Below, in pieces: positions 7,832 through 60,425 of a stretch of DNA of 64,000 bases (position 1 is the stretch's first letter; every line of letters starts with the position of its first letter). The translations under genes and the position numbers were made by a program. Source of the DNA: an uncultured delta proteobacterium. GTDB lineage: Bacteria; Myxococcota; Myxococcia; Myxococcales; Myxococcaceae. The DNA lies in contig CAVYSY010000051.1 in assembly GCA_963771175.1 (NCBI GenBank), forward strand, positions 32,001-96,000, given 5' to 3'. The notes below the pieces were generated by a model. It did no database searches. It had not been told where the DNA came from and worked only from the letters and a program-made list of their open reading frames with translations.

Positions 7832-7914
7832 TATCCCTCCAAGGGGCCACGGCGGGGCCGCGCCTCCAGGCGCCCCGTGGGAGCGGGGCGCTTGCGTCTT
7901 CTACGGAAACGACT

Positions 7915-26701: not shown

Positions 26702-26773
26702 TGACCCTGCCGGGATTCGAACCCGAGTTTGTGCCGTGAGAGGGCACCGTCCTAACCGCTAGACGACAGGGCC
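26702..26773 (-). tRNA. tRNA-Glu (CTC)
   Basis: GGCCCTGTCGTCTAGCGGTTAGGAC..GTGCC-CTCTCAC-GGCAC..GTTCGAATC..CAGGGTCA cloverleaf. Confidence 0.97.
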
Positions 26774-26823
26774 TGAAAACGGGGCGCCCACCTTCCCACG
26801 AAGGTGGGCGCCGTTGCTACGTG

Positions 26824-26895
26824 TGACCCTGCCGGGATTCGAACCCGAGTTTGTGCCGTGAGAGGGCACCGTCCTAACCGCTAGACGACAGGGCC
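26824..26895 (-). tRNA. tRNA-Glu (CTC), identical second copy
   Basis: Same sequence as 26702-26773. Confidence 0.97.
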
Positions 26896-26922
26896 GGTAG
26901 TGCTACGACCGGGTACAACGAG

Positions 26923-26993
26923 CTGGGGAACTAGGATTCGAACCTAGATAAGCAGAGTCAGAGTCTGCTGTCCTGCCGTTAGACGATTCCCCA
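26923..26993 (-). tRNA. tRNA-Gln (CTG)
   Basis: TGGGGAATCGTCTAACGGCAGGAC..GCAGA-CTCTGAC-TCTGC..GTTCGAATC..TTCCCCAG. Confidence 0.97.
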
Positions 26994-43690: not shown

Positions 43691-45768
43691 ATGGGGACTC
43701 TGGGATACTACTCGACGATCGCACGGCTCGCGCCGGGGGGGCTCGCCCGAGGGATGGCGCGGCGGGTCCAGGGAGTCGCTCGGCAAGCGCGCTATCGCCA
43801 GCGCGAGCGGCTCGACGAACCGAGGCTGCTGGCGGCCTTCGGCATCTCCCGCGCGGAGGAGCTGGCCGAGCGGGTGCTGTCGGCGCGCCCCGGCGGGGCC
43901 TGGTGTGAGGTGGACCAGCGGGCCTTCGTGGTGGAAGCGCTCGCGGCCCTCCCTGGCGCCGAGGAGCGGGCCCTGGCACGCGCCCGCGCCGCCTTGCGAG
44001 GAGAGTTCGACGTCTTCGGGACGACCGTGTGCTTCGGCGAGGGTCAGCCGGTGGACTGGTCGAGGGATCCGGTGAGCGGCTACCGCTATCCGGTCGTCCC
44101 GGTGGAGCAGCTCCGGCTGGAGCAGCCGGGCGTGGACCCCAAGTACCCGTGGGTGCTGGGGCGGCTGGACTGTCTGGTGGCGCTCGGTCAGGGGTACTGG
44201 GTGGAGCGCGACGCGGCGGCGCGACGCACCTTCGCGCGGGCCTTCGTGACGCGGACCCTGGACTTCCTCCAGGCCAACCCGGTGGGGCAGGGCGTGCACT
44301 GGACGTGTGCCATGGAGGTGGCGCTGCGCGCGGCCAACCTGGCGCAGGCGCTGGTGATGTTCTCGGACGCGCCGGAGGCCCGGCGGCCGGAGTTCCTCGT
44401 GCCGGTGCTGGAGTCGCTGGTCGAGCACACCGCGTGGGTGGACGCGCACCTGGAGGACAAAGGAGCGGTGCCCAACAACCACCTCGTCTCCAACTACGTG
44501 GGCCTGCTGGTGGCGGGCCTGCTCTTCCCGGAGCTGCCGGACGCGCCGAGGCAGGTGGCGCGCGCGGTGGCGGGGCTTCGGGCTCAGATGGCGGCGCAGG
44601 TGCACCCGGAGGGCACGTCCTTCGAGGGCTCGGTGCCCTACCACCGGCTCGCGGTGGAGCTCTTCACCCTGGCGTGGGTGGTGGCGCGCGGGACGGGGAC
44701 GGACCTCGGCGAGATGTACGAGACGCGGCTGCGCCGCATGTACGCCGCCGCGCGTGCCTGGTGCTCGGAGGAGGGGCTGGCACCGCAGATCGGGGACAAC
44801 GACTCGGGCCGCGTCTTCCCCTTCCGGGACCGCGGAGCCGTGCGATCACGGCTACCTCGCCCCACTGGGGGCGGCCCTCTTCGGCGACCCGAACCTCGCG
44901 GGAGGGAACCTTCCCGGACGAGGCGGCCTGGCTGCTGGGCCAGCCGGGGCTCGATCGCTTCAAGGCCCTGCGGCTCGCTCGACCCGCGGAGTCGGAGAGC
45001 TTCCCGGAGGGAGGCTTCCACGTGCTGCGCGGGGCGGGGGCGGTGGTGACGGTGAGCGCCGGAGCGCAGGGGCAGCGCGGGGTAGGCGGGCACAGCCACA
45101 ACGACAAGCTCTCCTTCGAGCTGCACCTGCATGGGCGCCCCGTCATCGTGGACCCGGGCACGGGCACGTACACGCGGGAGCCCGCGGTGCGCAACGCGTT
45201 CCGCGCCACGGCCGCGCACAACACGCTGGAGGTGGACGGCGTGGAGCAGGCGCCGCTCGAGCCGGGCCGGCTCTTCGCGCTGCCCGAGGCGGCGCGGGCG
45301 CGGGTGGAGGTGTTCCAGTCGGGCGCCGAGCTGGAGCGGCTCACCGTGCGGCACGACGGCTACCGCGCGCTGCCCTCGCCCATGTTCGTGGAGCGCACCT
45401 TCTTGCTGGACAAGCGCGAGCGTGCGCTCGGGGTGACGGACGCATTGGTGGGAGTGGGGCTTCACGAAGTGGTGGGGCGACTCCACCTTCCGGACCGCGA
45501 GGCCCGGCCGCGAGCGCCCACGCCCGCGCAACTGGCGCGGGCACTGCGTGTGCCAGAAGCCCCGCGGAACTTCGAATCGCTCGGTGTGGAGTTGGGGCCG
45601 GCGGAGGCCCCGGTGGCGCTGGTGCTCTTCGCGGTGGGCCTGGAGCCGCGGTTGGAGCCGTCCCGGTACTCGCCGGGTTACGGCCTCGTGGTGCCGTCGC
45701 AGGTGGTGGTGTTCCGGGTGCGCGTGTCGCCCCCGGCGTGGCTGAGGTGGGTGGTCGTCTTCAATTGA
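43691..45768 (+). CDS. Heparinase II/III-like protein (frameshifted read)
   Basis: NNHLVSN, FEGSVPYH, IGDNDSG, GGHSHNDKLSFEL, VDPGTGTYT, TAAHNT. Confidence 0.85.
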
Positions 45769-45828
45769 AGACCAGGGACGAGGGGGTGACCGGGGGGACC
45801 GGCACACCTTCAGGGAGAGGTGAGTCAG

Positions 45829-47161
45829 ATGCGCGTCATGGTGAGCCCGCTGCTGGAGCGTATCCGTCGGCGGGAGGCGAGGGTGGGCGTGGTGGGGATG
45901 GGCTACGTGGGTCTGCCGCTGGGCATGGCGTTCGCGGAGGCCGGCTTCCCCGTGACGGGGCTCGACGTCGACACGCGGAAGGTGGACAGCATCGGCAAGG
46001 GGGAGAGCTACATCAAGCACATCCCCAGCGCGCCGCTGAAGGAGCTGACGAGCAAGGGCAGGCTGAAGGCGACGACGGACTTCGCCCGGGCGAAGGAGCT
46101 GGACTGCATCATCATCTGCGTGCCCACGCCGCTCACGGCGTCGCGTGAGCCGGACATGAGCTACATCGTCAAGACGGGCGAGGCGCTCTCGCCGTACGTG
46201 CGTCCAGGGCAGCTCTTCGTCCTGGAGTCCACCACCTACCCGGGCACCACGGACGAGGTGCTCAAGCCGCATGCTGGAGAGGAGCGGCCTGAAGGCGGGC
46301 GTGGACTTCCACCTGGCCTTCAGCCCCGAGCGCGAGGACCCGGGCAACAAGAACTTCAACACCAAGACGATCCCGAAGATCGTCGGCGGCTACACCCCGG
46401 CGTGCCTCGAGGTGGCGCAGGCGCTCTACGCGCAGCGCGCTGCAAGGAGACGGTGCCGGTGTCCTCCACGCGCGTGGCCGAGCTGGCCAAGCTGCTGGAG
46501 AACATCTACCGCTGCGTCAACATCGCCATGGTCAACGAGATGAAGATGCTCTGCGACCGGATGGACATCGACGTGTGGGAGGTCATCGACGCGGCGAGCG
46601 ACCAAGCCCTTCGGCTTCATGCCCTTCTACCCGGGCCCGGGCCTGGGCGGGCACTGCATCCCCATCGACCCGTTCTACCTGACGTGGAAGGCGCGCGAGT
46701 ACGAGTTCCACACCAGGTTCATCGAGCTGGCCGGCGAGGTGAACACGCAGATGCCGTACTACGTGGTGCACCCGGACCATGGAGGCGCTCAACAAGCACA
46801 GGAAGACGCTCAACGGCTCGAAGGTGCTGTGCCTCGGCGCGGCGTACAAGAAGGACATCGACGACATGCGCGAGAGCCCGAGCCTGCGGATCATCTCGCT
46901 GCTCAAGGAGAAGGGCGCCGAGGTCGACTACCACGACCCGTACGTGCCGCGCCTCGAGGAGGGTCACGGCTTCCACTACTCGCATGACGTCGGTGCCGCT
47001 GCACCCGGAGACGCATCGGCCAGTACGACGCGGTGGTCATCCTCACCGACCACTCGAGCATCGACTACAACATGGTCGTGAAGCAGTCGCAGGTGGTCGT
47101 CGACACCCGCAACGCCAGCAAGAACGTGGGCCCGGGCCGTGAGAAGGTGACGAAGGCATAG
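45829..47161 (+). CDS. Nucleotide-sugar dehydrogenase (UDP-GlcNAc/UDP-Glc DH family; several frameshifts)
   Basis: [52 protein letters not shown]. Confidence 0.92.
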
Positions 47162-47204
47162 GCGGGGCGCCGGCCGGCCCGGTTGCCGTCCGGCCACAGC
47201 CAGG

Positions 47205-47254
47205 AGGCCCCGTCGCGGCGGTCAGGGGGGGACGCCGCGGTGGGGCCTTCGTTT
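47205..47254. terminator. Hairpin between convergent genes
   Basis: AGGCCCCGTCGCGGCG / CGCCGCGGTGGGGCCT followed by a short T-rich run. Confidence 0.65.
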
Positions 47255-47261
47255 ATCCAGC

Positions 47262-48035
47262 TCACGGACGCCTGGGCGCGCCGGGCTCTGGGACGGTCAG
47301 GTCCTCGGAGGAGTAGTAGGCGATGACCTGCTGCTGGTACTCCGGCCGCGAGTACACGTCGGGGCGGGGCCGCTCGATGACGTCCAGCAGGACGGCGGCC
47401 ACCTCCTCGACGGATTGCGCGCCGGGAATCCGCCGCGAGTCCACTCCGCCCCCGAGCGCGTTCACGCCGAACTCGGTGGCCACCACGCCCGGCAGGAACG
47501 CGGTGACGTGGATGTCCGGGTAGCGCTCGCGCAGCTCCTGGCGCAGGTTGGCCGTGAGCGCGTTGAGCGCGTGCTTGGCCGCGTTGTAGGCCGAGCGGAC
47601 GGGGACGTACGGCACCCGTCCCAGCATGGACGAGACGTTGATGATGTGCCCGCGTCCGCGCGACTGGAAGTGCGGCAGCACGGCCTGCATGCCGTAGAGC
47701 GCCGACTTGACGTTGACGCGCATCATCTCGTCGAAGTCCTCGTCGGTGAGCTCGGAGACGAGCTTGCTGATGCCTCGCCCCGCGTTGTTCACCCAGACGT
47801 CCACCTGCCCGAAGCGGGCAAGCGCCGCGTCCAGCACGCGCTGGACGTCTTCACGCCGGGAGACATCCGCGACCACCGGGAGTGCCTCGGACCCCGAGCG
47901 TGCCGCCACCTCGCGCAGCTCGCGCTCGCGCCGCGCGGCGAGCACCGGCTGCCACCCCTTCCGACCGACCTGCTCCGCCAGGGCGGCGCCGATTCCCGCG
48001 CTCGCTCCCGTGATCACCACGACTTTCTTGTCCAT
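47262..48035 (-). CDS. SDR family oxidoreductase
   Basis: TGASAGIG, NNAG, YNAAK. Confidence 0.92.
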   Translation of the reverse strand: MDKKVVVITGASAGIGAALAEQVGRKGWQPVLAARRERELREVAARSGSEALPVVADVSRREDVQRVLDAALARFGQVDVWVNNAGRGISKLVSELTDEDFDEMMRVNVKSALYGMQAVLPHFQSRGRGHIINVSSMLGRVPYVPVRSAYNAAKHALNALTANLRQELRERYPDIHVTAFLPGVVATEFGVNALGGGVDSRRIPGAQSVEEVAAVLLDVIERPRPDVYSRPEYQQQVIAYYSSEDLTVPEPGAPRRP

Positions 48036-48089
48036 GACGGCCTCCTCGCGGGGCATGTTAGCCGGGGCGGGGTCGGGTAGAGTCGGGGT

Positions 48090-49817
48090 GTGCGAAACCT
48101 ACTCAGGCCAGTCCTTCCACTGCTCGCCTCCTCGGTCCTCCTCGCCGCCGCCGCGCCCGCTCCGGACGCGCGCGTGGCGCTGGTGGACGCGATGGCGGAG
48201 GAGCTCCAGCGCAACCAGCAGCAGCTCAAGCTGCAGAACCACGAGCCTCCGTACTTCATGGGCTACCAGCTCAAGGACACGGAGCAGCACGGCATCGTCG
48301 CCCGTTACGGGGCGCTCTTCCAGGATGACTCGTTCCGCGAGCGAAAGCTGTACGTGGACGTGCGGGTGGGCTCGTACGACTTCGACAACTCGGGCCCCGA
48401 GGAGTACGAGTTCTTCGGCGGTGGCCGCGGCAGCAGCTACGTCGCCAACAAGGACGCGCCCATCGACGACGCGGCCCTGGCGCTGCGCACCTCGCTGTGG
48501 CTGGTGACGGACGAGAAGTACAAGGCCGCGCTCTCTCAGTTCCTCAAGAAGAAGGGTGAGAACGTCTACGCGGTGGAGGACCCGAAGCAGCCGCCGTCCT
48601 TCTCCAAGGAGAAGCCGACTCAGTACGTGCAGAAGCCGGTGGTCTTCCCGTTCGACCACGAGCGCTGGAGGAAGGTGGCGCGCGAGGTGTCCGCGCGCTT
48701 CAAGGCGCACCCCGAGATCTTCGACTCGGAGGTGCGGGTGACGGCGGACAAGGTGACGCGCCTCTTCGTGTCCACCGAGGGCAGCCGCATCGTGTCGGAA
48801 GAGACGATGTACGGGTTGCACGTGATGGCGGTGACGCGGGCGGACGACGGGCAGCTCCTGGACAACTCGCGCAACTACTACGCGCCCACCGAGGCGGGGT
48901 TGCCGGACGACAAGAAGCTGGCCGAGGCCACCACGAAGATCGTCGAGGAACTGCTGGCGCTGAGGAAGGCACCGGCCATCGACCCGTACACGGGGCCGGC
49001 CATCCTCGCGCCGGAGGCGGCGGGCGTGCTCTTCCACGAGACGATGGGGCACCGGCTGGAGGGAGACCGGCAGGATGGGGAAGGGGAGGGGAAGACCTTC
49101 CGGGGCCAGGTGGGCAAGCAGGTGCTGCCGGCGTTCCTCAGCCTCATCGACGACCCGACCCTGCGCACGCTGCAGGGCGAGCCGCTCAACGGGTTCTACG
49201 AGTACGACGAGGAGGGCGTGAAGGGGCAGCGGACGCCGCTGGTGGAGAAGGGCGTGCTGAAGGGCTACCTGCTGTCGAGGCGGCCGGTGGAGGGCTTCCT
49301 GCAGTCCAACGGGCACGGGCGCAGCCAGGGCACGCGCAAGCCGGTGGCGCGCATGGCCAACCTCATCGTCGAGTCGACGAAGCAGGTGGATGACGTGGAG
49401 CTGAAGAAGCAGCTCATCGCCGAGGCGAAGCGCCAGGGCAAGCCCTACGGGCTCATCATCCGGGACATCACGGGCGGCAACACCAACACGTCGAGCTACG
49501 GCTACCAGGCGTTCAAGGGCGTGCCGCGGATGGTGTACCGGGTGGACGTGAAGACGGGACAGGAGACGCTGGTGCGCGGGGTGGAGATCGTCGGCACGCC
49601 GCTGTCGTCGATCAACCGCATCATGTCCACGGGCCGCAAGTTGGGCATCTTCAACGGGTACTGCGGGGCGGAGAGCGGGAACGTGCCGGTGTCCACGGTG
49701 GCGCCGGCGGTGCTGCTGCAGGAGATCGAGCTGCAGCGGGCGATGGAGGGCAAGGACCGGCCGCCCATCCTGATGAGCCCGGCCGCGAGCACCACCGCGA
49801 GCGGTGACGTGAAGTAG
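48090..49817 (+). CDS. TldD/PmbA-family protease with signal peptide
   Basis: Sec-type N-terminus; FHETMGH, DEEG, SNGHGR, GYCGAESG. Confidence 0.85.
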   Translation: MRNLLRPVLPLLASSVLLAAAAPAPDARVALVDAMAEELQRNQQQLKLQNHEPPYFMGYQLKDTEQHGIVARYGALFQDDSFRERKLYVDVRVGSYDFDNSGPEEYEFFGGGRGSSYVANKDAPIDDAALALRTSLWLVTDEKYKAALSQFLKKKGENVYAVEDPKQPPSFSKEKPTQYVQKPVVFPFDHERWRKVAREVSARFKAHPEIFDSEVRVTADKVTRLFVSTEGSRIVSEETMYGLHVMAVTRADDGQLLDNSRNYYAPTEAGLPDDKKLAEATTKIVEELLALRKAPAIDPYTGPAILAPEAAGVLFHETMGHRLEGDRQDGEGEGKTFRGQVGKQVLPAFLSLIDDPTLRTLQGEPLNGFYEYDEEGVKGQRTPLVEKGVLKGYLLSRRPVEGFLQSNGHGRSQGTRKPVARMANLIVESTKQVDDVELKKQLIAEAKRQGKPYGLIIRDITGGNTNTSSYGYQAFKGVPRMVYRVDVKTGQETLVRGVEIVGTPLSSINRIMSTGRKLGIFNGYCGAESGNVPVSTVAPAVLLQEIELQRAMEGKDRPPILMSPAASTTASGDVK

Positions 49818-49829
49818 CGCAGCACTCTG

Positions 49830-49856
49830 GGGAGACAGGTCCAAATCCTGTCTCCC
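49830..49856. terminator. Hairpin downstream of the TldD-like gene
   Basis: GGGAGACAGG-7 nt-CCTGTCTCCC. Confidence 0.6.
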
Positions 49857-49940
49857 TGGCCAGCCCAAGCTGCTCGACGTGAGCTTCGAGCTGCTGATGC
49901 TCGAGCGCGTCGCGGACGCTCATTGATTCACGAGAGGCTC

Positions 49941-50930
49941 ATGTCACGCAGGACGCTCCGCCGCACCGTTTCCCGACTGCTGCTCTTCGCCCCGGCGCTT
50001 CCCCTCCTCGCCTGCTCGCGGCAGTCCTCCTACCGCATGAGTTGCTACGAGGTACTCTATGAGGAGAGGATCACGATCTCCTGGCGCGCCCCTCCCGATG
50101 GCGGCACTCATGAGCTGGACACCTGCCAGCACTACTGCATGAATTCGTACAGTGGGCAGAGGGCTGGTCCAGAGTGGCTGAAGGATTGCAGCCTGCAGAT
50201 GCGTGATGGTGGCACCAGCGCGGTAGTGACGTGTCAGGTCGTTGGGGAACTCTGTGAAGGCCGCCGTCCCGAGGGGCTGGTGAGCCGGGGTGTGGTGGAG
50301 GGCCGGGTGTCCGCGCTCGGAGCCCTCTTCGCCCGGATGGCCCACTTGGAGGCTGCCTCCGTGCCGGCCTTCGAGCGCCTCGCCGAGGAACTCGCCAATC
50401 ATGGGGCCCCCGCCCGGCTGGTGCGCGCCGCCCGCCGCTCCGCCTCGGACGAGGTACGCCACATGCGCGCCATGCGGGCCCTCGCCCAGCGTTACGGCGC
50501 TCCCATTCCTCCTCTGCAGGTGGAGCCCTTTGGCCCTCGTCCCCTGGCCGCGCTCGCGCTGGAGAATGCCGTGGAGGGCTGTGTGCGCGAGACGTTCGGT
50601 GCTCTCGTGGCGGGGTGGCAGGCTCGCTGCGCGCTCGATCCGGAGGTGCGCCGGGCCCTGGGCCACATCGCCCCGGACGAGCTGCGGCATGCGGAGCTCT
50701 CGTGGGCCATCGACGCTTGGGCCTCGCGCCGCCTCTCCGCATCGGAACGGGAGCACCTCCGAGAAGCCCGGCACGAAGCGCTGCGCACCCTGGCCCGCTC
50801 CGTGGCGCAGGACAAGCCCGTGGAGGCGTTCATCCGGTGGGCGGGGATGCCCTCGCCGGAAGCGGCACGCATGCTCGTGCGTGAGCTGACGGAGCTGGTT
50901 CTCGACCTGGAGCAACAGGCCGGGACTTGA
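49941..50930 (+). CDS. Ferritin-like-domain lipoprotein
   Basis: Lipobox LLAC; EGRRPEGL; HLEAASV, DEVRH, ENAVEGCVRE, DELRH diiron-type pattern. Confidence 0.8.
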   Translation: MSRRTLRRTVSRLLLFAPALPLLACSRQSSYRMSCYEVLYEERITISWRAPPDGGTHELDTCQHYCMNSYSGQRAGPEWLKDCSLQMRDGGTSAVVTCQVVGELCEGRRPEGLVSRGVVEGRVSALGALFARMAHLEAASVPAFERLAEELANHGAPARLVRAARRSASDEVRHMRAMRALAQRYGAPIPPLQVEPFGPRPLAALALENAVEGCVRETFGALVAGWQARCALDPEVRRALGHIAPDELRHAELSWAIDAWASRRLSASEREHLREARHEALRTLARSVAQDKPVEAFIRWAGMPSPEAARMLVRELTELVLDLEQQAGT

Positions 50931-51418
50931 TGTCCCCCTGGCAGTCGAGCCAAAGGGACATCAGGAGCGCACGCTCATGATGAAGCGACCATTCGTCGCC
51001 AGGGGGCGTATGCGGAACGGACCCCGGACGAGCAGGTCTTCCTCTATGCCACCGAATACGAGGACGACGTCCTGACCCACAAGAAGATCGAGGAAGGTGA
51101 CGTCGTTCTCTTCGTCACGCTCCCCAGGTTGGCGGAGGGGAGACTCCGCGCTGGGGGAAAGCGCTCCACCGCGCAGGTCGCCGTCTGGCGCTTCTCGGAG
51201 TCTTCGCCCCGTGATGGTTCTGACTGGCGCCAGAGTGATGGCACCGTGGAGGTGGTGATGCTCTCTCGGACGAAGGTCCACCTCCGGGTGGACGCGAAGT
51301 TCCCAGGCGGTGGGTCCGTCTCTGGCGAGCTCGTCGCGCCAATTCGCGGCGAGGATTGACTCAGGCGCAGTGGAGGGCGGTGCCGCGCGGTACGGGCGCT
51401 GTTGCAGTCCCATCAGAT

Positions 51419-52939
51419 TCAGCGGGCTCCCAGACGGTGGAGCAGAATCGTCCTCAGATAGTCGCGAGTACGTATCGCCTCGTCCTGATAGTTCCTGCCC
51501 TGTGTGCGTTCTCCGTGGACGATTTCGCACCTGCTTTCGTAGGACTCCCTCACCGCCCGCTGCAGGTTGTCGGCGGGTCCCACCCCAAGAGTCGCCAGCT
51601 CCTTGCTGATTCTCTCCGCGCACTTCGTGGTGAGAGAGCCCTCTCCTCGGCGCGTGAAGAGCCCCTCGAGTGCTACCCAGCAGTCTATCAGCCAGTCTTT
51701 TGGAGAGCCTCGGCGGCAGGACGAGAACCAGCGACGCAGGGCGATGGTCAGGCCTCCGTCCTGCGAGGCTCCTGCCTGACCTGTCTCAGCGGAGAAAAGA
51801 TCGTAGATTCGCGGAACCAATGCCTGCAAACGTTTGGCGTCATCAACGCTCAACGAGACATGGCCAGGCATGAATGCTCTATTGAAAGAGGCCCCGCCGA
51901 TGCGGGTCCTGAATCCCTCCCGGAGCGATCCTTCCCGGAGTTTCTCCGCGAAAGTGGGCTCGATGATGTATCCGATGGATGGCTCGCCCATGAGCAGGTT
52001 GAGAGCTACCAGCGCCACAAATTCTGGGAGTTCCAGCTTCAGCTCGTCATGCAGGTCCCTCTCCCACATGATGGTCTGAAAGCCCGGCTCTTCATATTCG
52101 AGCACACTCCGAAGACCAAGGACATCGAGCCCACGCAGCGGTATTTCATTGCACAGCGGGTCCGGGTTGAGCCAACGGTCGAGCTCCATCGCCGACACAG
52201 CCCTCAGCTTGAGGCGCGGCAGGAGTTCCAAAGCGGGGCCATTCAGCCACAGCTTGAGCAGGGGCGTCAGGCGGTATTGGCATTGCCGCCCACGCGCGAT
52301 GCGCTGCTTCAGTCGGATGAACAGGTAGTGCGCCACCCGCTCATCCAAGTTCAGTACCTGGGGGGCGAGCCATAGATAATCGCGGACGTACTCGCCAACA
52401 AAGCCATTCCACGCCCTCACGCGCATCTCGGCGAGGTTCGCGGGTGGATGTGCTTCATCTTCTGTTATGAGGAGACAGTTCCACTCTGGAGGCGCCTTCG
52501 ACATCAGCAGGGCCAGCGGATCCAGCGAGCGCAGTTGCTCTTCCTGGTTGTTTCTCACGAAAAGCTCAAACAGGTGTCGCGCATCATGGCACTGCATTGT
52601 CAAGATGCTGGGGCCACCGCTAGGCGAGACGCCAATCACCTCATTCCTCGACAGGACCTCTGATTGCCGTAGCCAGGCGCGCAAAAGCCGCTGCTCCTCG
52701 TCCAGGGCGTGCTCCTCCAATGAAGGCGAGAACAGACTGCCATCGGCCAGCCGCTTATGAAGCGGCTTCGGACCATGGGTCAGGAAGAAGTGGCATACCT
52801 CCCGGATGACGTTCTGGAGCGCTCCCTCCAGTTGCTCCAGGGGCGTTCCGGTCAAGGGCTTGGCCGTGAGGTGGCGAAGGTTCCAGAGTCCCTCTCCAAG
52901 AAGTCTTCCGAACAGCATCTTGCACTCCTCATGGAACAT
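51419..52939 (-). CDS. HEPN-domain protein (ApeA-like C-terminal HEPN)
   Basis: WVALEGLF ... YESRCEIVHG (RxxxxH); visibly more AT-rich than neighbouring genes. Confidence 0.75.
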   Translation of the reverse strand: MFHEECKMLFGRLLGEGLWNLRHLTAKPLTGTPLEQLEGALQNVIREVCHFFLTHGPKPLHKRLADGSLFSPSLEEHALDEEQRLLRAWLRQSEVLSRNEVIGVSPSGGPSILTMQCHDARHLFELFVRNNQEEQLRSLDPLALLMSKAPPEWNCLLITEDEAHPPANLAEMRVRAWNGFVGEYVRDYLWLAPQVLNLDERVAHYLFIRLKQRIARGRQCQYRLTPLLKLWLNGPALELLPRLKLRAVSAMELDRWLNPDPLCNEIPLRGLDVLGLRSVLEYEEPGFQTIMWERDLHDELKLELPEFVALVALNLLMGEPSIGYIIEPTFAEKLREGSLREGFRTRIGGASFNRAFMPGHVSLSVDDAKRLQALVPRIYDLFSAETGQAGASQDGGLTIALRRWFSSCRRGSPKDWLIDCWVALEGLFTRRGEGSLTTKCAERISKELATLGVGPADNLQRAVRESYESRCEIVHGERTQGRNYQDEAIRTRDYLRTILLHRLGAR

Positions 52940-53003
52940 TGGCGGCGATTGTAGCCGGACGCGGGCGTTTGCTCCGGAAACATGGAGGAATGAGGAAGAG
53001 GAA

Positions 53004-53068
53004 GGGGCCGACAAGGATTGAACGAGATGGACATGTGGAAGATGTAGTCCCGTTCGCATTCGGCCTCC
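53004..53068 (-). ncRNA. Putative minimal Y RNA-like hairpin, copy B
   Basis: GGAGGCCGAATGCGAACGGGACTACATCTTCCACATGTCCATCTCGTTCAATCCTTGTCGGCCCC; stem may extend to about 52993-53075. Confidence 0.7.
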
Positions 53069-53074
53069 CTCCTC

Positions 53075-53146
53075 CGCCGAGAGCCGGCAAGGAGTGAGTG
53101 AGACGGACAGTTGGAATGTAGTCACACTCGCATCCGGCCCCCGGCG
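53075..53146 (-). ncRNA. Putative minimal Y RNA-like hairpin, copy A
   Basis: CGCCGGGGGCCGGATGCGAGTGTGACTACATTCCAACTGTCCGTCTCACTCACTCCTTGCCGGCTCTCGGCG; begins 4 nt after the TROVE stop; covaries with copy B. Confidence 0.7.
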
Positions 53147-53150
53147 TTCC

Positions 53151-54707
53151 TCAAAGCTCGGTGCTCTCGATGGACTCCACCCACCGGCGGGCATCCAACC
53201 CGCCATTGGCGAAGTCCGACATCAGCTCGAACACCACATCCGAAAAACCTCCCACGTTGAAGATGTCCTCTCGCTCCGGTGCCTGGGTCGTCCCGTACGG
53301 CTGGAGATCGATGCACACCAGCCGCGCGCGCGGGTTGCGGCGCCGGAAGAGCTCCCACTGTCGCAGCGTCTCCGTCCCCACTCCCGCCCGCGCATCCACC
53401 CAGGACTCGTTGTCCGACACGAACACCACCAGCTCCCCCTTCGCGTGGCGCGCGTTCAGCCACGCCAGTGGCGCGCTGCAGTTCGTCCCGCCCCCTCCCA
53501 CCGACGCCATTCGCTGGGCGTTGGCCATGATGCTGTCGCGCACCGGGAGCGTCAGCGGCACCACGTCATGATCGAACGGCACCACCTGCGCGCCCGGGTT
53601 GCGTCGCAACATGGCCGCCGCCAGGAGCGCGGCCACGTCCACGCAGCGCACCGCCGTCGTCGCCCCCTCGCGATGCCCCGTCACCGGCGACTGCATGGAG
53701 CCCGAGACGTCCACGCAGACGTAGGCCCGGCCCTCCACTCGCGGCACGTTCTCGATGGCCACCTCCATGGCCGCCTGCAACGCGTCACGCACCCGGGCAG
53801 GCACCTCGCGACCCACCGCGCGCCACGCCGCCAGGAGCTGGTACGGGAACACCCGCGCCCGCCGCACCTCCGCCGGATCCGCCAGCCGCCGGGCGATCCG
53901 CTTCTCCATCCCCGGCTCGTTGAAAACGCCGTGCCGGGCGAAGGTGTTGAGGTTCATCCGCGTCATGTGCCAGGAGGCCTCCTGGGCGATGTGCACCCAC
54001 GCCTCCGTCTTCAGGGGCAGGGAAGTGAGGAGCTGGAAGGGCACCTCCGGCACCTCACGCGAGGTGGGGCGGGCCTTGAAGTCCTCGTAGTGGGCCACCA
54101 GCTCCGGCAGCGCCTCGCGCGCGTGGGGCCGACCCAGCAGGTAGCCATAGAAGGATTCACGTCGAGCCGTCTTCGGCTTGGGGTGCACCATGTGGATGAT
54201 GTCCGCCAGCGAGGGGGACTGGCCCACCGACTCACGAAAGAGCGTGTCCTCGTCGCGCGCGTCCAGCCACTCGCACACCAGCCGCTTGGGGAGGCTCCCC
54301 AGCGAGCGGCGGGCCACGAGCCCCGAGCGCATGATCTGCACGAAGGTGCGCAGCATGCGGCCGGTGTCGATGACGCGCGGGAAGACGCGCGGCAGCAGCT
54401 CGGGTCCGAGCACCGAGAGCACCGCGCACAGCAGCGCCGGGGTGTCCTTCATGTACCCGCGCTGGCGGCAGTACAGGGCCGTGCGAGCCACGAACTCCGG
54501 CTCCACCTGGCCACTCAGCGCGAGAAGCTGGTCGAGCTGCACCTCGGCCGCGGCATAGAAGGTGCCGTTGAGGCAGCCGGTGGCGGCGTACTGGGCCAGC
54601 GCGTGCCGGGGCGTGAAGGCAAAGGCAGGGGCGCCCTCCTCGTTGAGGGCATCGGGCGGGGGCAGTACCGGGCCGCGAGTGGTCTGGAAGAGGGACAGGT
54701 TCGCCAT
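53151..54707 (-). CDS. rsr: Ro60/TROVE + vWA ribonucleoprotein (Rsr)
   Basis: NEEGAPAF, TGCLNGTFY, MKDTPALL, MTRMNLNT, RVFPYQLL, MIDAS DVSGSM, GGTNCS, VSDNE, GFSD. Confidence 0.92.
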   Translation of the reverse strand: MANLSLFQTTRGPVLPPPDALNEEGAPAFAFTPRHALAQYAATGCLNGTFYAAAEVQLDQLLALSGQVEPEFVARTALYCRQRGYMKDTPALLCAVLSVLGPELLPRVFPRVIDTGRMLRTFVQIMRSGLVARRSLGSLPKRLVCEWLDARDEDTLFRESVGQSPSLADIIHMVHPKPKTARRESFYGYLLGRPHAREALPELVAHYEDFKARPTSREVPEVPFQLLTSLPLKTEAWVHIAQEASWHMTRMNLNTFARHGVFNEPGMEKRIARRLADPAEVRRARVFPYQLLAAWRAVGREVPARVRDALQAAMEVAIENVPRVEGRAYVCVDVSGSMQSPVTGHREGATTAVRCVDVAALLAAAMLRRNPGAQVVPFDHDVVPLTLPVRDSIMANAQRMASVGGGGTNCSAPLAWLNARHAKGELVVFVSDNESWVDARAGVGTETLRQWELFRRRNPRARLVCIDLQPYGTTQAPEREDIFNVGGFSDVVFELMSDFANGGLDARRWVESIESTEL

Positions 54708-54719
54708 GCCCCTGCCTTG

Positions 54720-54735
54720 AGCATCCGGCGTGCCA
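54720..54735 (-). promoter_or_regulatory. Sigma-54 (-24/-12) promoter of rsr
   Basis: TGGCACGCCGGATGCT, exact GG-N10-GC spacing. Confidence 0.7.
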
Positions 54736-54821
54736 TTCCGTCCGCCAGGGTGCCACCCAGCGCAAACCCGCGTCTTTCCAGGGACTTCCCCGGCCTGGCT
54801 CGGGAGCAGGCTCCTGGAGGC

Positions 54822-54839
54822 CTTATTCATCAGGATAAA
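54822..54839. promoter_or_regulatory. Enhancer-like inverted repeat (candidate RtcR-type UAS)
   Basis: TTATTC-N4-GGATAA, AT-rich, about 90-100 bp upstream of the -24 box. Confidence 0.55.
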
Positions 54840-54958
54840 GTCTTAGCCTTGGGAATAGGAACGGCCACCGGAAGGCAGGGACGAGCCTGAGCGCACTGGC
54901 GTAGGGGAGGGCGGTGGGGGGCGCCTGCCCCCACGCCAGGAGCAGGCCAGGACGTGGA

Positions 54959-55834
54959 TTACCGCTCCACGCCCAGCAATGCCGCGAACAGCTCTCGGGG
55001 ATCGATGCTTGGGGGAATCCCGGAGACACCGCCATCGTTCACCTCGACCACGGCCCAACGGCCGTCTTCGAGCATCGCGACATCCATGGTGAAGAAGCGC
55101 GCGTCGATTCTGCGTGCGAGTCGCTCGAAGGCGGAGAAATCCGGTACGTCGACATCGAAGTCATCGGAGGACTCCGCCGCCAGGAGCCGCCCGTGCCCGA
55201 AGAACAGCCGGAATTCGAGGTGCGCGGGCCCGGTCCGCGTCCGTCCCCGGACCTTGAATGGCAGGATCCGCCTGACGACGAACCCACGCTCGAAGCGCTC
55301 TCCTCGCTCCTCGAGCAGCGCGCCGCAGATGCGCTCGAAGTCCTGTCGCGAGGCTCCGGCCGGAACGAAGCACGCCTCGGCCCAACGCTCCTTCGCCGAC
55401 TTCACGTGGTCCTTCACGAGCCATGGCGGCGAGCCGAGCGCTTGAGCGGCATGCCACGCCTCCGACGGGTCCGTGCCCTCGGTCCAGACGGAGCGTGCGG
55501 TGTACCCCTTCAGCTGCGGGTACCAGTTCGGCAGGTAGTGGGCCGCCGAGTACTGCGCGGGGGTGGTCATCAGCTCGTGGCTAAGCGCCCCGAGCGCCTC
55601 GTCCAGCGCCTCGTACTCTTCGCCCGTGAGCATCCACCCCCGGTACAGCAGCCGGAGGTGGCCCTGTTCGGGAATGGCGGCGCACGCGCGTTCCGCATCG
55701 CCCTCCAACAGGGCGGCCAGATCGATCTGGAAGGTATCTATTCCCAGCGCTTCGGCCGCATCCGCCTCCGTATCGAATGAATCGGACTGATGCGGATTCC
55801 GGCCAAACAGGATGGACGAAGCCAGCGGCATCAT
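54959..55834 (-). CDS. ATP-grasp domain protein (R2K-like)
   Basis: LYRGWML, HYLPNWY, VKDHVKS, EFRLFF, FFTMDVA..VVEVNDGGVSG. Confidence 0.78.
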   Translation of the reverse strand: MMPLASSILFGRNPHQSDSFDTEADAAEALGIDTFQIDLAALLEGDAERACAAIPEQGHLRLLYRGWMLTGEEYEALDEALGALSHELMTTPAQYSAAHYLPNWYPQLKGYTARSVWTEGTDPSEAWHAAQALGSPPWLVKDHVKSAKERWAEACFVPAGASRQDFERICGALLEERGERFERGFVVRRILPFKVRGRTRTGPAHLEFRLFFGHGRLLAAESSDDFDVDVPDFSAFERLARRIDARFFTMDVAMLEDGRWAVVEVNDGGVSGIPPSIDPRELFAALLGVER

Positions 55835-56055
55835 GAACCTCTCGTCAGGGGTGGGGCTCCCCCAGACGACGGCTCGAAACGAGGCCTGACAAAGGACTCA
55901 GTGGCTTGTTCGCGGTGGTGTGGCCGGTGTCGCATGGCGATTTCCGGCACTCGACGGGAATGACGCGGTCTGCCCCGAAAACCTGACGAAATCGTTTGCG
56001 TGCGCCGTGGATTCTCGGGGGCCGAAGTGTCCAGGCCCGCCTACCATGGAGCGGC

Positions 56056-56538
56056 TCAATCCACTTCGGGATGGCGCCGGAGGTTCCGCCTCCTTCGCAT
56101 CCACCACCAGGCCGGCAGGAGGCCTGTCAGCAACGGGGGCAGCCAGCTCGGGACGCCCAGCCAGAGCGACCATGGCTCCGCCTTGTCCTGGTGCCCCTTG
56201 CGGATGAGCCAGAAGCCCATGCGGTTCCAGCCGGACTGGGGTGTCGGCTTCCGCGGCGCTCGAAAGAAGGCGCCCCCCAGGTCGAAGCGCTCCAGGGGTT
56301 TCGATTTGGGATGTCTGAATTCGTTAGCCCCCACCATGAAGGAGCCGTCTCCGGGCCACCGGAGGCGATAGTGGGTCTGGGTCACGAAGGCATCATCGAC
56401 GCGATCCGCGTCGATGCCGAAGGAGGTGTAGAGCCTGTAACCGAACGGCCACATCACCAGGAAGGCCAGGCTCGCGAGCAACGAGGCTCCGCAGAGGAGG
56501 TCGAATGCGGAGGGACGGAAGGGCGCTGGTCTCTTCAT
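56056..56538 (-). CDS. Hypothetical membrane protein
   Basis: N- and C-terminal hydrophobic helices with a basic tail. Confidence 0.65.
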   Translation of the reverse strand: MKRPAPFRPSAFDLLCGASLLASLAFLVMWPFGYRLYTSFGIDADRVDDAFVTQTHYRLRWPGDGSFMVGANEFRHPKSKPLERFDLGGAFFRAPRKPTPQSGWNRMGFWLIRKGHQDKAEPWSLWLGVPSWLPPLLTGLLPAWWWMRRRRNLRRHPEVD

Positions 56539-56729
56539 GGGATGCTCGTGTGGCTTCCACCGGGAGGATACTCCATCGCCTTGGACGTCCTGGCGATGGA
56601 CCACCTTTGAGCCGTCGGCGACCTGCTGCAAGTGGCGTCGGGCCTTCTCGATGAGGGCCCGCATCCGGCATCCCCACTTCGAATCGCTGAGCCGCTGCCT
56701 TAGCATCCCTCCACCCTCAAGGAGGAGCA

Positions 56730-57742
56730 ATGCTCGTTCGGTCTTCACTGGTGGCAGGTCTGCTCGCGGGAGCGCTCGTCGCTTTCGCCCCACAGGCCCA
56801 TGCCGCCTGCTCGTACTTCGCCGCGCTGGATCGCGATGTCACCCAGCCCTCACAGCGCGCACTCATCACCTGGGATCCAGAGACGAAGTCCGAGTCCTTC
56901 ACCGTGCAGCCCGTCTTCCAGGGCAATGCCGAGGACTTCGGCATGGTCATCCCCACGCCCGCCCAGCCCAAGCTGAAGGAGGCCCCTCGCGACATCTTCA
57001 AGGACCTGGCGCTCTACACCGTGCTCGAGCCCAGGCCCTGTACGCGTCCCATGAAGAAGTACTCCAGCGCCTTCCCGTCCGCGGCTCGAGAGGCCCCGGT
57101 GATGAAGAAGAGCACGGTGCGGGTGCTGGAGGCGGGCGTGGTCGGCTCGCTCGACTACAAGATCATCACCGCGGAGAAGGCCTCGGACCTGTTCGAGTGG
57201 CTGAAGGAGAACAAGTACAGCTACTCCGGCGACGAGGCGACGCTCGACTTCTACGTGAAGAAGAAGTGGTTCTTCACCGTGATGAAGATCGACACCAAGC
57301 AGATGAAGCATGACCCGACGGCACCTTCGCCGGCGAGGTGACGCCCACGCGCTTCCAGTTCACCAGCGAGAAGCTCGTCTACCCGCTGAAGATCACCCCG
57401 TTGAGCGTGAAGGACAAGACCGAGGCGCTCTTCTACGTGCAGGCCCCTCGGAAGATCGCCTTGCCCCAGTCGAAGCTGGAGTACGCGAAGCGGCTGAAGG
57501 GAGCGGACCTCGACAAGCTGGACAAGGGCCTGGTGCCCATCCCCCAGTCCTCGCAGACCATGGGGGAGGCTCAGCAACACGACTTCAAGGGGCTGAAGGG
57601 ATGGCTGAAGAAGGGCGAGTACCTCACGAAGGTGCGGCGCGTCTTCCGCAAGGAGGAGATGACCGATGATCTCGAGCTGGCCTTCGCCAACGACAACGAG
57701 GAGTACACCTCGTACGAGGACTGCGGCGGAGTTCCCCCGTGA
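56730..57742 (+). CDS. DUF2330-like secreted protein (frameshift near 57315)
   Basis: AGGAGG RBS, signal peptide ending AHAAC; FGMVIPTP, LFEWLKEN, FYVKKKWFFTVMK, YPLKIT. Confidence 0.75.
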
Positions 57743-59631
57743 GGCTCGCGCTGCTCGCGGCGCTCCTCCCGACGCTCGCTTCCGCCCAGCTCTCGGTGCG
57801 TCCGGGCAGCACGCGCGATCACCCGCATGACGTGCCCTGGGATGTCTCGGGGCGCTCGCTGAAGGCCCCGCGCCTGCGCGCCCTGCACGCCCCCGTCGAC
57901 GTGCAGGGCAGCTCCATCTGGCTCATCCGGAACGATCCGCTGCTCGCCTATGCGATAGGCCGCGACCTCAACCTGCGTGACTGGCAGCTTCGGGACGGCG
58001 TGTTCGGCGAGCCGGGACGGCTCGTGGGCTTCACCCGGCCACGCCTCATGGGCGGTGGAGGCGGAGGCACCCTGCCTCGCGATGACTCCGGCTCGTGCGC
58101 CACCTGCCACAACGTCCCCTTCGGCGAGCCGGGTGCTGGCCCCACCATTCCCAAGGACGCGGGCACCGGCCGCAACACGCCCCACCTCTTCGGTGGGGGC
58201 CTCCAGGAGATGATTGGCGAGCACATCCGCGCCCGCATTCTCGCCTCGTGCGACGCCAACGGTGATGGCCGCATCACCCCCGCCGAAGCCAAGGGGAAGC
58301 GGGCCACCGTCCACACGCGGGGCTCGGGCGGGGTGGCGCTCGACTTCGGCCCCTGTGGCGACGAGACGGGAGAGGGGGTACCGGACATCGAGCCGCAGGT
58401 GCGGGCGTACTACCTGGATGGCGAGGGCCAGTGGATGGCCTGGGCCACTTCGCTGAAGACGCCCGGCGTCGCCGCCTGGGCCCCCGAGCCACAGGTCTTC
58501 GGGCACGGCCAGGCGGACGGGGCGCTCACTTCCACGCTCCGCGCCTTCTTCGTCCAGGCCGCGGACGTCCACACCGGACTGCAGGCGTACGATCCACTCC
58601 TGGTGGATGACCCGGACAAGGATGGCCTCTCCGGGACGAGTCCGAGTGGCATGGTGCAGACGATGACCGTGCGGCCGCGCGACCGCGGGCGGGTGTTGAC
58701 CGCTGCCGGCGTCTCGCGGGACGACCCCGACCGGGACGGCGCGCTCGAGGAACTCTCGTGTGGCGACGTGGACCTGGCCGAGCACTTCCTCCTGCACGTC
58801 CCACCCCCGGCGGAGAAGCCCACGCCCCGGGCCCGAGAGGGACGCAAGGTGTTCGACCGCATCGGCTGCGCCACCTGCCACGTGGCGGACTGGGAGGTGG
58901 AGCGCGACCGGCGACTCTTCCGCCTGGAGGTCGCACCGGGCTCCTCGGGCACGCTCGAAGGCCGCCTCGTGTGGACCGCGCGAAAGACGGAGACAGGGCT
59001 GGAGCCCGAGGGCAGACCCTTCCTCGCGCGCGGCGTGTACAGCGACTTCCGGCGCCATGACCTCGGGCCGGAGAGCCACGAGCTGGGCTTCGATGGCACG
59101 GTCCTCCGGAAGTTCCGCACCGCGCCGCTGTGGGGTGTGGGCTCCACGGCCCCGTACTTCCACGACGGGGCCTCGCTGTCGCTGGAGGACGCGCTGGAGC
59201 GCCATGGTGGCGAGGCGGCGGAGACGCGGGCCCGCTGGAGGGCTCTGCCCGAGCGCGAGCGCGACGCGCTGCTGGCCTTCCTCAACAGCCTCGTCCTCTA
59301 CGCCATCACCGATCTGCCCGCGGACGTGGATGGGGATGGGAAGGTGGCCGCCGAGTGGAAGGTGGGCGGACAGCCGACGTATGGCCCGGAGCGCTTCAAC
59401 CCCGAGCTGCTGTCCCAGGTGCCCTGTGCGCTGGAGGGGCCGACGCGAGGCTATGGCGGTGAGCCCATCATCAGCCGGGCCTGTCTCAACGTGCCCGCGC
59501 TGTATCGGATGGACCTGAAGGCACGACGGGATGTGGACCAGGACGGCTTTCCCGATGTGCGGGATGATTGTCCGGAGCAGCGTGGCTACCTGGACGGGTG
59601 TCAGGACCCGCCCGGCTACACCGGTGAGTGA
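57739..59631 (+). CDS. Di-heme oxidoreductase (DHOR)-like protein
   Basis: Two CATCH heme-c motifs; RNTPHLFGGG; YSDFRRHDLG; RTAPLWGVG..YFHDG..HGGEA. Confidence 0.85.
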   Translation: MRLALLAALLPTLASAQLSVRPGSTRDHPHDVPWDVSGRSLKAPRLRALHAPVDVQGSSIWLIRNDPLLAYAIGRDLNLRDWQLRDGVFGEPGRLVGFTRPRLMGGGGGGTLPRDDSGSCATCHNVPFGEPGAGPTIPKDAGTGRNTPHLFGGGLQEMIGEHIRARILASCDANGDGRITPAEAKGKRATVHTRGSGGVALDFGPCGDETGEGVPDIEPQVRAYYLDGEGQWMAWATSLKTPGVAAWAPEPQVFGHGQADGALTSTLRAFFVQAADVHTGLQAYDPLLVDDPDKDGLSGTSPSGMVQTMTVRPRDRGRVLTAAGVSRDDPDRDGALEELSCGDVDLAEHFLLHVPPPAEKPTPRAREGRKVFDRIGCATCHVADWEVERDRRLFRLEVAPGSSGTLEGRLVWTARKTETGLEPEGRPFLARGVYSDFRRHDLGPESHELGFDGTVLRKFRTAPLWGVGSTAPYFHDGASLSLEDALERHGGEAAETRARWRALPERERDALLAFLNSLVLYAITDLPADVDGDGKVAAEWKVGGQPTYGPERFNPELLSQVPCALEGPTRGYGGEPIISRACLNVPALYRMDLKARRDVDQDGFPDVRDDCPEQRGYLDGCQDPPGYTGE

Positions 59632-60425
59632 GGCTGTCGGAGCTCGGGGCCAGCGAGCTCTTGGGGCGGGGGCTCCGGCAGGGTGAGCACCTCGCAGCCC
59701 TCACGCGTCACCAGGACGGTGTGCTCGAACTGGGCGGAGAGGCGCCCGTCCTCGGTGACCACCGTCCACCTGTCCGGCAGCACCCGCACCTCCGGGCGCC
59801 CGAGGTTCACCATGGGCTCGATGGTGAGGACCATGCCCGAGCGCAGCGTGATGCCCGTGCCCCGCTTCCCCACGTGAGACACATGGGGCGGGAGGTGCAT
59901 GGAGCGGCCGATGCCATGCCCCCCGAACTCCTCCACCACGCTGCAGCCCTCCGCCCGCGCCAGCTCCTGGATGGCCGCGCCGATGTCTCCCAGCTTCGCG
60001 CCGTGACGCACGACCGCGATGCCCGCCTCCCGGCACCGGCGCGCCACCTCCACCACGTGCCGCGCTTCCGCCGACACCTCGCCGATGAGGAACGTGGCCG
60101 AGGTGTCACCGTGGAACCCGTTCAGACACGTGGTCACGTCCACGTTGATGATGTCCCCCGGAGCGAGCCGCTCCTCCTCGCGCGGGATGCCGTGGCAGAC
60201 CACGTGGTTGCGGCTGGTGCACACCGTCGCGGGGAAGCCGTGATAGCCCAACTGGCTCGGCGTGCCTCCGCGCCGGGCGGTGTCCTCCCGCACCCACGCG
60301 TCGATGTCCGCCGTTGAAATCCCAGGCGCCAGCCGCGCCGCGACGTATGCCAGCGTCCCCGCCGCCGCCTGCCCCGCCAGGCGCAGGCGTTCGACCTCGG
60401 TCCCTTTCAGCAGTGGAATCCCCAT
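59616..60425 (-). CDS. map: Type I methionine aminopeptidase
   Basis: CHGIP, DVT, GDTS, GHGIG, TIEPM, SAQFEHT. Confidence 0.95.
   Translation of the reverse strand: MGIPLLKGTEVERLRLAGQAAAGTLAYVAARLAPGISTADIDAWVREDTARRGGTPSQLGYHGFPATVCTSRNHVVCHGIPREEERLAPGDIINVDVTTCLNGFHGDTSATFLIGEVSAEARHVVEVARRCREAGIAVVRHGAKLGDIGAAIQELARAEGCSVVEEFGGHGIGRSMHLPPHVSHVGKRGTGITLRSGMVLTIEPMVNLGRPEVRVLPDRWTVVTEDGRLSAQFEHTVLVTREGCEVLTLPEPPPQELAGPELRQPHSPV

Follow-up and report, generated by a model that had tools for sequence, protein, structure and literature searches.

As outlined in PMC7790460, the Salmonella regulator RtcR turns on the operon rsr-yrlBA-rtcBA once it has been activated by tRNA 5' halves that end in a 2',3'-cyclic phosphate. 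Rsr is an orthologue of Ro60, and bacterial Y RNAs, as outlined by Chen et al. 2014 (PMC4201824), carry a 5' GNCGAAN0-1G motif. The same account gives every characterized species a tRNA-like Y RNA as well, and describes a Y RNA that tethers Ro60 to PNPase. HEPN domains are described as mostly metal-independent endoribonucleases (PMC9879122), and ApeA, a single-gene HEPN anti-phage tRNase, is reported to cleave tRNA anticodon loops (10.64898/2026.01.26.701840). Here we analyzed a locus in which an rsr gene, two Y-like RNAs and a gene for a HEPN-fold protein follow each other on the minus strand. The locus lies within a 64,000-nt stretch of DNA (hereafter the window) on contig C51 of an uncultured delta proteobacterium. 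Its genome comprises 9.8 Mb in 58 contigs with ~69% G+C and is ~82% complete by marker genes, and the named homologues indicate Myxococcaceae.

Reading the minus strand from 54848 to 51419, we found a tripartite repeat, a sigma-54 element, rsr, two hairpin RNAs, an 82-nt spacer and an open reading frame (ORF) of 499 amino acids (aa). Every element listed in a first-pass annotation of this DNA is present on this strand, with small corrections to the coordinates. That annotation had read the whole locus as one candidate new Ro60 system in which a Rsr/Y RNA complex acts on a HEPN ribonuclease (RNase). We favor a different reading, to which we give a probability of about 70%: the locus consists of two independent units that are neighbors by accident, in a variable region of the chromosome.

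The single-system interpretation did not hold up against linkage, homology and composition. For linkage, we compared 18 rsr loci (each taken with 1500 nt on either side, 3 of the 18 having less than 500 nt of downstream sequence). By tblastn, the HEPN gene was found beside rsr in 1 of the 18, the window's own locus, so a recurring HEPN gene behind the Y RNAs is not seen, as far as these loci can test it. For homology, the closest comparison is G012, a genome of the same genus, whose DNA is 89.6% identical to the window over 52993-54774 only, from just past the second Y RNA to just upstream of the promoter. The genes flanking this shared segment in the two genomes are unrelated. The junction between conserved and foreign sequence (~52993) falls in the spacer that separates the HEPN gene from Y RNA 2 (52919-53000, minus strand), which also contains a TACAAT hexamer and a GAGGAG Shine-Dalgarno sequence. 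For composition, the HEPN gene has 60% G+C and a third-position G+C (GC3) of 0.72, compared with 70% and 0.91 for rsr and a GC3 of 0.81-0.96 for the neighboring genes. The same evidence supports the alternative that the first-pass annotation had itself allowed, an independent insertion of the HEPN gene.

The distribution of the two genes was also examined beyond these loci. No HEPN gene was found in 18 kb around the G012 rsr gene, and none of the 17 remaining same-genus genomes yielded the HEPN protein. A search of 61 relatives returned two matches, the gene itself and a weak partial one in G022 (E 8.7e-5, residues 392-478). Of 208 genomes of the taxonomic family, 3, including the window's own, have a full-length member of the HEPN family. 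Taken broadly, the HEPN family was found in 11 of the 401 genomes from the phylum, and rsr in 17 of the 363 from the order. Apart from the window's genome, the two overlap only in G329, where they lie on different contigs. Two Corallococcus HEPN loci have no rsr within 7-8 kb and no Y-like RNA detectable with our covariance model, and the three full-length HEPN contexts have only the HEPN gene in common. The broader family has HsdM, AbiJ_NTD4, an IS630 transposase and Mrr_cat among its neighbors, which fits a mobile stand-alone defense or toxin gene better than RNA repair. Direct or inverted repeats that would mark an insertion mechanism were not found at the borders of the HEPN segment. Metagenome contigs from four runs (up to 409 nt) cover pieces of rsr and the Y RNAs or of the HEPN gene; none spans the junction between Y RNA 2 and the HEPN gene, and they are evidence for neither side. 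No physical link is reported in the papers we found that name Rsr, Y RNA and HEPN together.

On the favored reading, the first unit (54848-53001) would be a self-contained Rsr/Y RNA module: rsr and two Y RNAs of the short hairpin type would be expressed from a sigma-54 promoter with an enhancer-like repeat. Processing of the 3' portion of this transcript would presumably release the Y RNAs, which Rsr would then bind. This unit is most likely turned on by RtcR, together with the RtcB ligase, as damaged RNA accumulates. It would in effect be one of two transcription units into which an operon like Salmonella rsr-yrlBA-rtcBA has been divided. The second unit (52918-51419) would be a separately acquired, stand-alone HEPN ribonuclease with ApeA as its nearest named family. 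Most likely it is a toxin or defense protein that works by itself, is triggered by stress or phage and cleaves RNA, possibly tRNA, and its position behind rsr would yield at most some read-through transcription. The HEPN gene would thus be an independently inserted member of an RNase family whose function does not depend on rsr.

The identity of rsr is well supported. The gene lies at 53151-54707 on the minus strand and encodes 518 aa. The longest ORF extends from 53151 to 54830, and since its ATG at 54830 falls inside the upstream repeat, we placed the start at the conserved ATG at 54707 (MANLSLFQ), from which all relatives align. The protein scores 67.2 bits for vWA_Ro60 (cut-off 27.7) and 32.5 bits for TROVE (cut-off 23) in Pfam, its translation contains the DVSGS metal-ion-dependent adhesion site (MIDAS) motif within VCVDVSGSM of the vWA domain, and it aligns over its full length with the D. 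radiodurans Rsr structure 2nvo (E 1.7e-25) as well as with other TROVE/Ro60 structures. The TROVE-vWA gene of the first-pass annotation is therefore a Ro60 orthologue. The assignment is at the family level only, as the score for the NCBIfam equivalog NF041674 was 91.5 bits with a cut-off of 900. The gene is single-copy in its own genome. Rsr is 90-92% identical in four other genomes (G012, G109, G110 and G112), so that five Myxococcaceae genomes carry the rsr-Y-Y unit, and these five loci form the close clade referred to below.

We also observed that the window Rsr is 92% identical to that of another genus (g45, loci L032-L034) and 90% identical to the sole same-genus copy (L012), with differing contexts. 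This suggests that a 1.8-kb module has been exchanged between genera. Another genome of the same genus, G016, holds only N- and C-terminal rsr fragments of ~70-82% identity (L017, G016:C1 ~10070-10320) in a locus of the G012 type. This locus has lost the Y RNAs, and an ORF of 224 aa adjoins the rsr remnant. To judge by these sequences, the rsr-Y-Y module is one that is gained and lost within the genus.

Upstream of rsr, we found the sigma-54-type promoter TGGCACgccggATGCT at 54720-54735 (minus strand), a pattern match with its -12 GC located 14 nt before the rsr ATG. Among 16 loci of the order, 15 have the pattern TGGCAC-N5-[AC]TGCT at a distance of 28-138 nt ahead of the rsr ATG, and the sole locus lacking it has just 216 nt of upstream contig. 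As a pattern, with GG-N10-GC conserved in those 15 loci, the promoter proposed earlier is thus confirmed. The distance to the start codon separates two groups of loci. All five close-clade loci place the -12 GC only 14 nt ahead of the ATG, compared with 40-138 nt in other families, where GGAGG precedes the ATG. From this spacing, the close-clade rsr mRNA would be leaderless or nearly so.

The inverted repeat proposed upstream of this promoter is also present, at 54848-54823 on the minus strand. It reads GGCTAA-GACT-TTATCC-TGAT-GAATAA, a tripartite GGCTAA-N4-TTATCC-N4-GAATAA with a 6-4-6-4-6 layout, and is a putative RtcR-type enhancer, or upstream activating sequence (UAS). We found the same layout at a second place in this genome. 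RtcR is encoded beside an RtcB on contig C36, and the rtcB promoter divergent from rtcR contains GGATAC-N4-TTAGCC-N4-AGATAA followed 57 nt on by TGGCACgcgggCTGCT. Genome-wide, a relaxed form of the repeat has 4 matches and the promoter pattern 44, and the two co-occur (within 300 nt on the same strand) only at rtcB and rsr. Four of four other genomes (G012, G109, G110, G112) likewise have the repeat beside rtcR, 57 nt ahead of a sigma-54 element, and the gene behind the rtcR-divergent promoter is rtcB in both loci checked (428 bits for the G112 RtcB). At rsr itself, it lies ~103 nt upstream of the promoter in three of the other four close-clade loci (G109, G110, G112), and G012 has it with one mismatch.

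Because the rtcB and rsr sites share both the repeat and the sigma-54 promoter, rsr, along with its Y RNAs, probably belongs to an RtcR regulon in trans. This would explain the lack of rtcB in the window cluster without any reference to the HEPN gene. The first-pass annotation was correct that no rtcB lies in cis: RtcB matches are found on 6 other contigs of the genome, and the rtcR-rtcB pair sits on C36 (rtcA was not searched for). Its suggestion that a putative RNase has taken the place of the ligase genes is less convincing, since the separate rtcR-rtcB locus with the same repeat and promoter explains the missing rtcB better.

Downstream of rsr, the annotation had noted two tandem structured repeats beginning 4 nt after the stop codon. 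Two RNAs are indeed encoded there on the minus strand, and the first begins 6 nt, not 4 nt, after the stop. Y RNA 1 (53077-53144) carries the 5' motif GCCGGAUG and Y RNA 2 (53001-53070), starting 80 nt after the rsr stop, carries GCCGAAUG. Both thus lie well inside the ~2-4 kb around rsr in which bacterial Y RNAs are encoded. The two copies adopt one shape, in which the 5' and 3' ends pair as a lower stem and an asymmetric internal loop separates this from an upper stem capped by a small loop; the folding z-scores are -3.5 and -2.9, respectively. Y RNA 2 has the GNCGAAN0-1G motif, and Y RNA 1 has a variant of it that is compensated by a C on the opposite, 3' strand. Among the 26 aligned sequences, the pair in question is A-U in 19 and G-C in 7.

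The fold is supported by covariation. An alignment of 26 short modules gave a consensus of 15 base pairs with 94% of the cells paired and compensatory changes in 10 of the 15 pairs (71 cells). None of 500 column shuffles equaled this, and sliding the partners by 1-3 columns reduced pairing to 27-58%. Helix 1, which joins the two ends of the RNA, is 93% paired, and both partners have changed in 6 of its 8 pairs. A covariance model built from the 26 RNAs scores the window copies at 63.8 and 73.8 bits, a match by construction because both are in the training alignment, and genome-wide it finds only these two training copies. The Rfam YrlB model matches Y RNA 2 over its whole length at 22.8 bits and the G012 copy at 33.3 bits, both below the gathering score of 97, which none of the window RNAs reached. 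On this evidence the window RNAs are Y RNAs of the hairpin (YrlB/Yrn2-like) type, and Rsr would be expected to bind them.

Module arrays follow rsr in every locus of the order with downstream sequence, and they number two to seven (G351) with the common elements CGAAUGC...GGGACUACAU...GUCUCG...UCGUCG. The five close-clade loci have just two hairpins each. Rfam YrlA gave no match at E<=1 in 49000-59000 of the window, and none above its gathering score in the (incomplete) genome. The same model finds tRNA-like modules in other families of the order (L040 at 73.7 bits, L013 at 65.1, L035 at 53.5), where some of the Y modules carry T- and D-arm-like sequences. We noted one array in particular. L035 (G351:C406, 700-1424, minus strand) has seven consecutive Y 5' motifs, in which three short hairpins are followed by modules with the T-arm-like GGTTCGAATCC; Rfam calls YrlA and tRNA in this array, and other loci of the same family hold 3-4 modules. 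We found no literature joining Y RNA, Rsr and Myxococcus, and the supplements of PMC4201824 may list myxobacterial Y RNAs.

The HEPN-fold gene lies at 51419-52918 on the minus strand and encodes 499 aa from the start preceded by GAGGAG, or 506 aa from an ATG at 52939. The earlier description of a gene of about 506 aa ending in RxxxxH proved correct, and the gene is intact. Its product is modeled with a helical N-terminus, an alpha/beta middle domain and a C-terminal HEPN domain with R463-CEIV-H468. Neither R463 nor H468 varies among 7 close sequences or among 48 from the broader family, whose alignment has eight invariant residues (R396, D412, W414, E418, L420, Y460, R463 and H468). The protein matched no Pfam, NCBIfam or PADLOC family. 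HEPN_Apea and ApeA_NTD1 of Pfam had no match in any of the 7 close members at E<=10, and PF18739 had none genome-wide at E<=1. Among 5.8 billion clustered proteins, we found only six close homologues, from Corallococcus species and metagenomes, with 38-47% identity. A profile search of 1.84 billion representatives with a threshold of E<=0.001 returned 1168 relatives, of which 176 reached E<=1e-10. Most of the relatives are 420-460 aa long, and the 24 that were scanned likewise had no Pfam or PADLOC family. The family was not found in our scans of metagenome and viral contigs, and a plasmid search gave one weak partial match.

To characterize the fold, structure models were compared with known structures. 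A full-length AlphaFold2 model from 7 sequences was poor, with a predicted local distance difference test score (pLDDT) of 57.6 overall and below 50 at the N-terminus. The model of residues 201-499 was confident (pLDDT 86.7). In a VIA search with this model, which is independent of Foldseek, 15 of the top 15 rows were HEPN-fold chains matching over residues 384-499, at Z 5.8-8.1, a middling range for helical domains; two of these, titled as of unknown function and nucleotidyltransferase-like, are chains that we take to be HEPN. The best row was 8xdj (Z 8.1, 105 residues aligned, root-mean-square deviation 3.4), and the others included Csm6, AF_0298, HepT, AbiV and the sacsin HEPN domain. Foldseek gave no match in the PDB at E<=0.001 with either the full or the domain model. 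From motif, family and modeled fold, the protein is a predicted HEPN RNase of a large family that has no Pfam or PADLOC model. There are weak indications that ApeA is its nearest named family, of which it may be a distant relative. A HEPN-MNT toxin-antitoxin pair was considered and rejected, as no nucleotidyltransferase was found among the flanking ORFs scanned against Pfam.

One of the homologues has a context of its own. In C. praedator (L020, 4963-9530), genes for a Macro-domain protein, a 284-aa protein, the HEPN homologue (7022-8470) and an RNA ligase (PF09414) follow each other in the same direction. This run may be an RNA damage or repair cassette.

Several points weigh against two independent units. 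The HEPN gene is co-directional with rsr and begins 232 nt past the rsr stop, and we found neither an intrinsic terminator nor a sigma-70 consensus promoter in 50800-55100, in scans that do not model myxobacterial signals. One of the two HEPN homologues with a known context adjoins an RNA ligase and a Macro-domain gene, which is a weak link to RNA repair. Just three full-length HEPN contexts exist, and the linkage survey was confined to short flanks that in 3 of the 18 loci are shorter still downstream. The Z scores of 6-8 for the HEPN domain are middling by the tool's own scale. On the side of the regulon, the repeat pattern was defined after viewing the rsr and rtcB sites of this genome, so that the four other rtcR loci are its sole independent check, and the available part of PMC9650030 gave no RtcR site sequence for comparison.

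Some of these points bear on transcription. Given the shared strand, the 232-nt gap and the lack of a recognizable terminator or own sigma-70 promoter, co-transcription of rsr and the HEPN gene is plausible. One could therefore suppose that the coupling is transcriptional only: the HEPN gene would be expressed mainly by read-through from the RtcR/sigma-54 promoter of rsr, and RNA damage would co-induce Rsr, the Y RNAs and the RNase. If the RNase made tRNA halves with 2',3'-cyclic phosphates, the result would be a feed-forward loop, and the endoribonuclease activity of most HEPN domains and the anticodon-loop cleavage by ApeA are in line with such a product. However, the arrangement of rsr and the HEPN gene is unique to this genome, consensus scans do not capture the promoters and terminators of myxobacteria, and the stable Y RNA hairpins may themselves end or process the transcript. 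We consider this explanation unlikely, though it is the best of the alternatives.

An extended form of this idea is a strain-specific damage circuit. Here, an ApeA-like HEPN RNase would be co-transcribed behind rsr and the Y RNAs from an RtcR/sigma-54 promoter, and its cyclic-phosphate tRNA halves would feed back on RtcR. The Rsr/Y RNA particle, with RtcB in trans, would limit or clean up the damage, or would tether the RNase as a Y RNA tethers PNPase in Deinococcus. Such a circuit is improbable on the present evidence; if true, it would be the first Ro60 ribonucleoprotein paired with a HEPN effector.

A further alternative is that the HEPN gene came in with an old insertion and has no present function, being carried along silently or decaying. 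Its lower G+C content, the variable region and an adjacent start-less ORF fragment (50931-51359) are what such a history would leave. On the other hand, the ORF is intact over 99% of the homologue length, keeps all 8 family-invariant residues including R463 and H468, and has a good Shine-Dalgarno sequence (GAGGAG) before its ATG, and we regard decay as similarly improbable. Least probable of all is the model of the first-pass annotation, in which the HEPN RNase is tethered, gated or neutralized by physical contact with Rsr and the Y RNAs, as a new Ro60 effector system: gene adjacency and order, the tethering of Ro60 to PNPase by a Y RNA and the RNA ligase beside the C. praedator homologue speak for it, but there is no co-occurrence outside this genome, the composition differs across a sharp homology boundary, and many genomes have the HEPN family without rsr. 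Taken together, we retain the reading of two independent units.

The surroundings were examined as well. Synteny with the genomes of the same genus holds in 17 of 17 for the left flank (44003-49860) and ends at ~49860. The following 49870-59670, a mosaic of ~10 kb that contains the locus, is non-syntenic in 17 of 17. The plus-strand frame at 50931-51359 is a protein-like open frame of 142 codons that converges on the HEPN gene and has no ATG, GTG or TTG before codon 67; it may be a gene remnant that arrived with the insertion. On the other side, an R2K-clade ATP-grasp gene (Pfam R2K_3, 125 bits) lies at 54959-55834 on the minus strand, directly upstream of the enhancer-like repeat of rsr. It was rejected as a part of the rsr module, as copies of 82-84% identity sit in same-genus genomes without rsr. 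Further away, three clustered tRNA genes are found at 26702-26993 (minus strand), two copies of which appear identical in alignments. A DUF2330 gene at 56730-57742 is split into two ORFs, and the rtcB and rtcR matches at C36:14059-15985 are broken across several reading frames. Such split frames reflect either many pseudogenes or indel errors in the assembly, and may also account for the 82% completeness.

The claim of a Ro60-HEPN system thus loses most of its interest, as the proposed system is unsupported. What the locus offers lies in its parts. In Myxococcales, rsr comes with an array of Y RNA modules, numbering from 2 to at least 7, and one Myxococcaceae clade keeps two hairpin Y RNAs with no detectable tRNA-like one, compared with the published picture of a tRNA-like Y RNA in each characterized species. 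The Rtc regulon appears to be split, with rsr and rtcB far apart under the same repeat and sigma-54 promoter, which gives a candidate RtcR site and a regulon in trans. The neighboring gene belongs to a HEPN family of more than 1000 representatives without a Pfam or PADLOC model, possibly a distant relative of ApeA.

Among known systems, HepT/MNT-type HEPN toxins resemble the HEPN protein in its C-terminal domain, for which 8xdj, 7ae2 and 5yep are the best structural matches, and in the Rx4H motif. They differ in that the window protein has ~500 aa with two extra domains and in that the scanned flanking ORFs include no MNT gene. The predicted secondary-structure layout of the window protein, with a helical N-terminus (pLDDT <50), a middle domain and a C-terminal HEPN domain, is similar to the N-terminal, Mid and split-HEPN arrangement described for ApeA (10.64898/2026.01.26.701840); no direct structural match to ApeA was seen. 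The motifs WIALE(S/G)L(F) and RxxIVH align with Ec3ApeA (9hxj), for which the PDB profile match reached only E 0.11. The nearest named ESM-Atlas clusters carry HEPN_Apea (scores 0.85-0.90) and ApeA_NTD1, and two homologues are named 'Apea-like HEPN' in their source. Unlike ApeA, the window protein matches neither the Pfam ApeA families nor PADLOC, and ApeA chains are outside the top 50 VIA rows.

The hairpin Y RNAs YrlB and Yrn2, as outlined in PMC4201824, are likewise encoded next to rsr, with the 5' GNCGAAN0-1G motif and a stem formed by the 5' and 3' ends. The published Y RNAs differ from those of the window clade in the presence of a tRNA-like Y RNA and in the YrlB scores given above. Compared with the Salmonella Typhimurium rsr-yrlBA-rtcBA operon, the locus likewise places an Rsr orthologue next to two Y-like RNAs, behind a promoter of the sigma-54 type that is preceded by a repeat, and its genome encodes RtcR and RtcB. 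It differs in that rtcB and rtcR are on another contig, with RtcR control suggested by shared motifs only, and in that its RNAs are two short hairpins after rsr with no tRNA-like YrlA found. The locus is therefore best read as a known kind of module, Rsr and Y RNAs under a sigma-54/RtcR-type promoter, which is here split from rtcB and has hairpin Y RNAs only.

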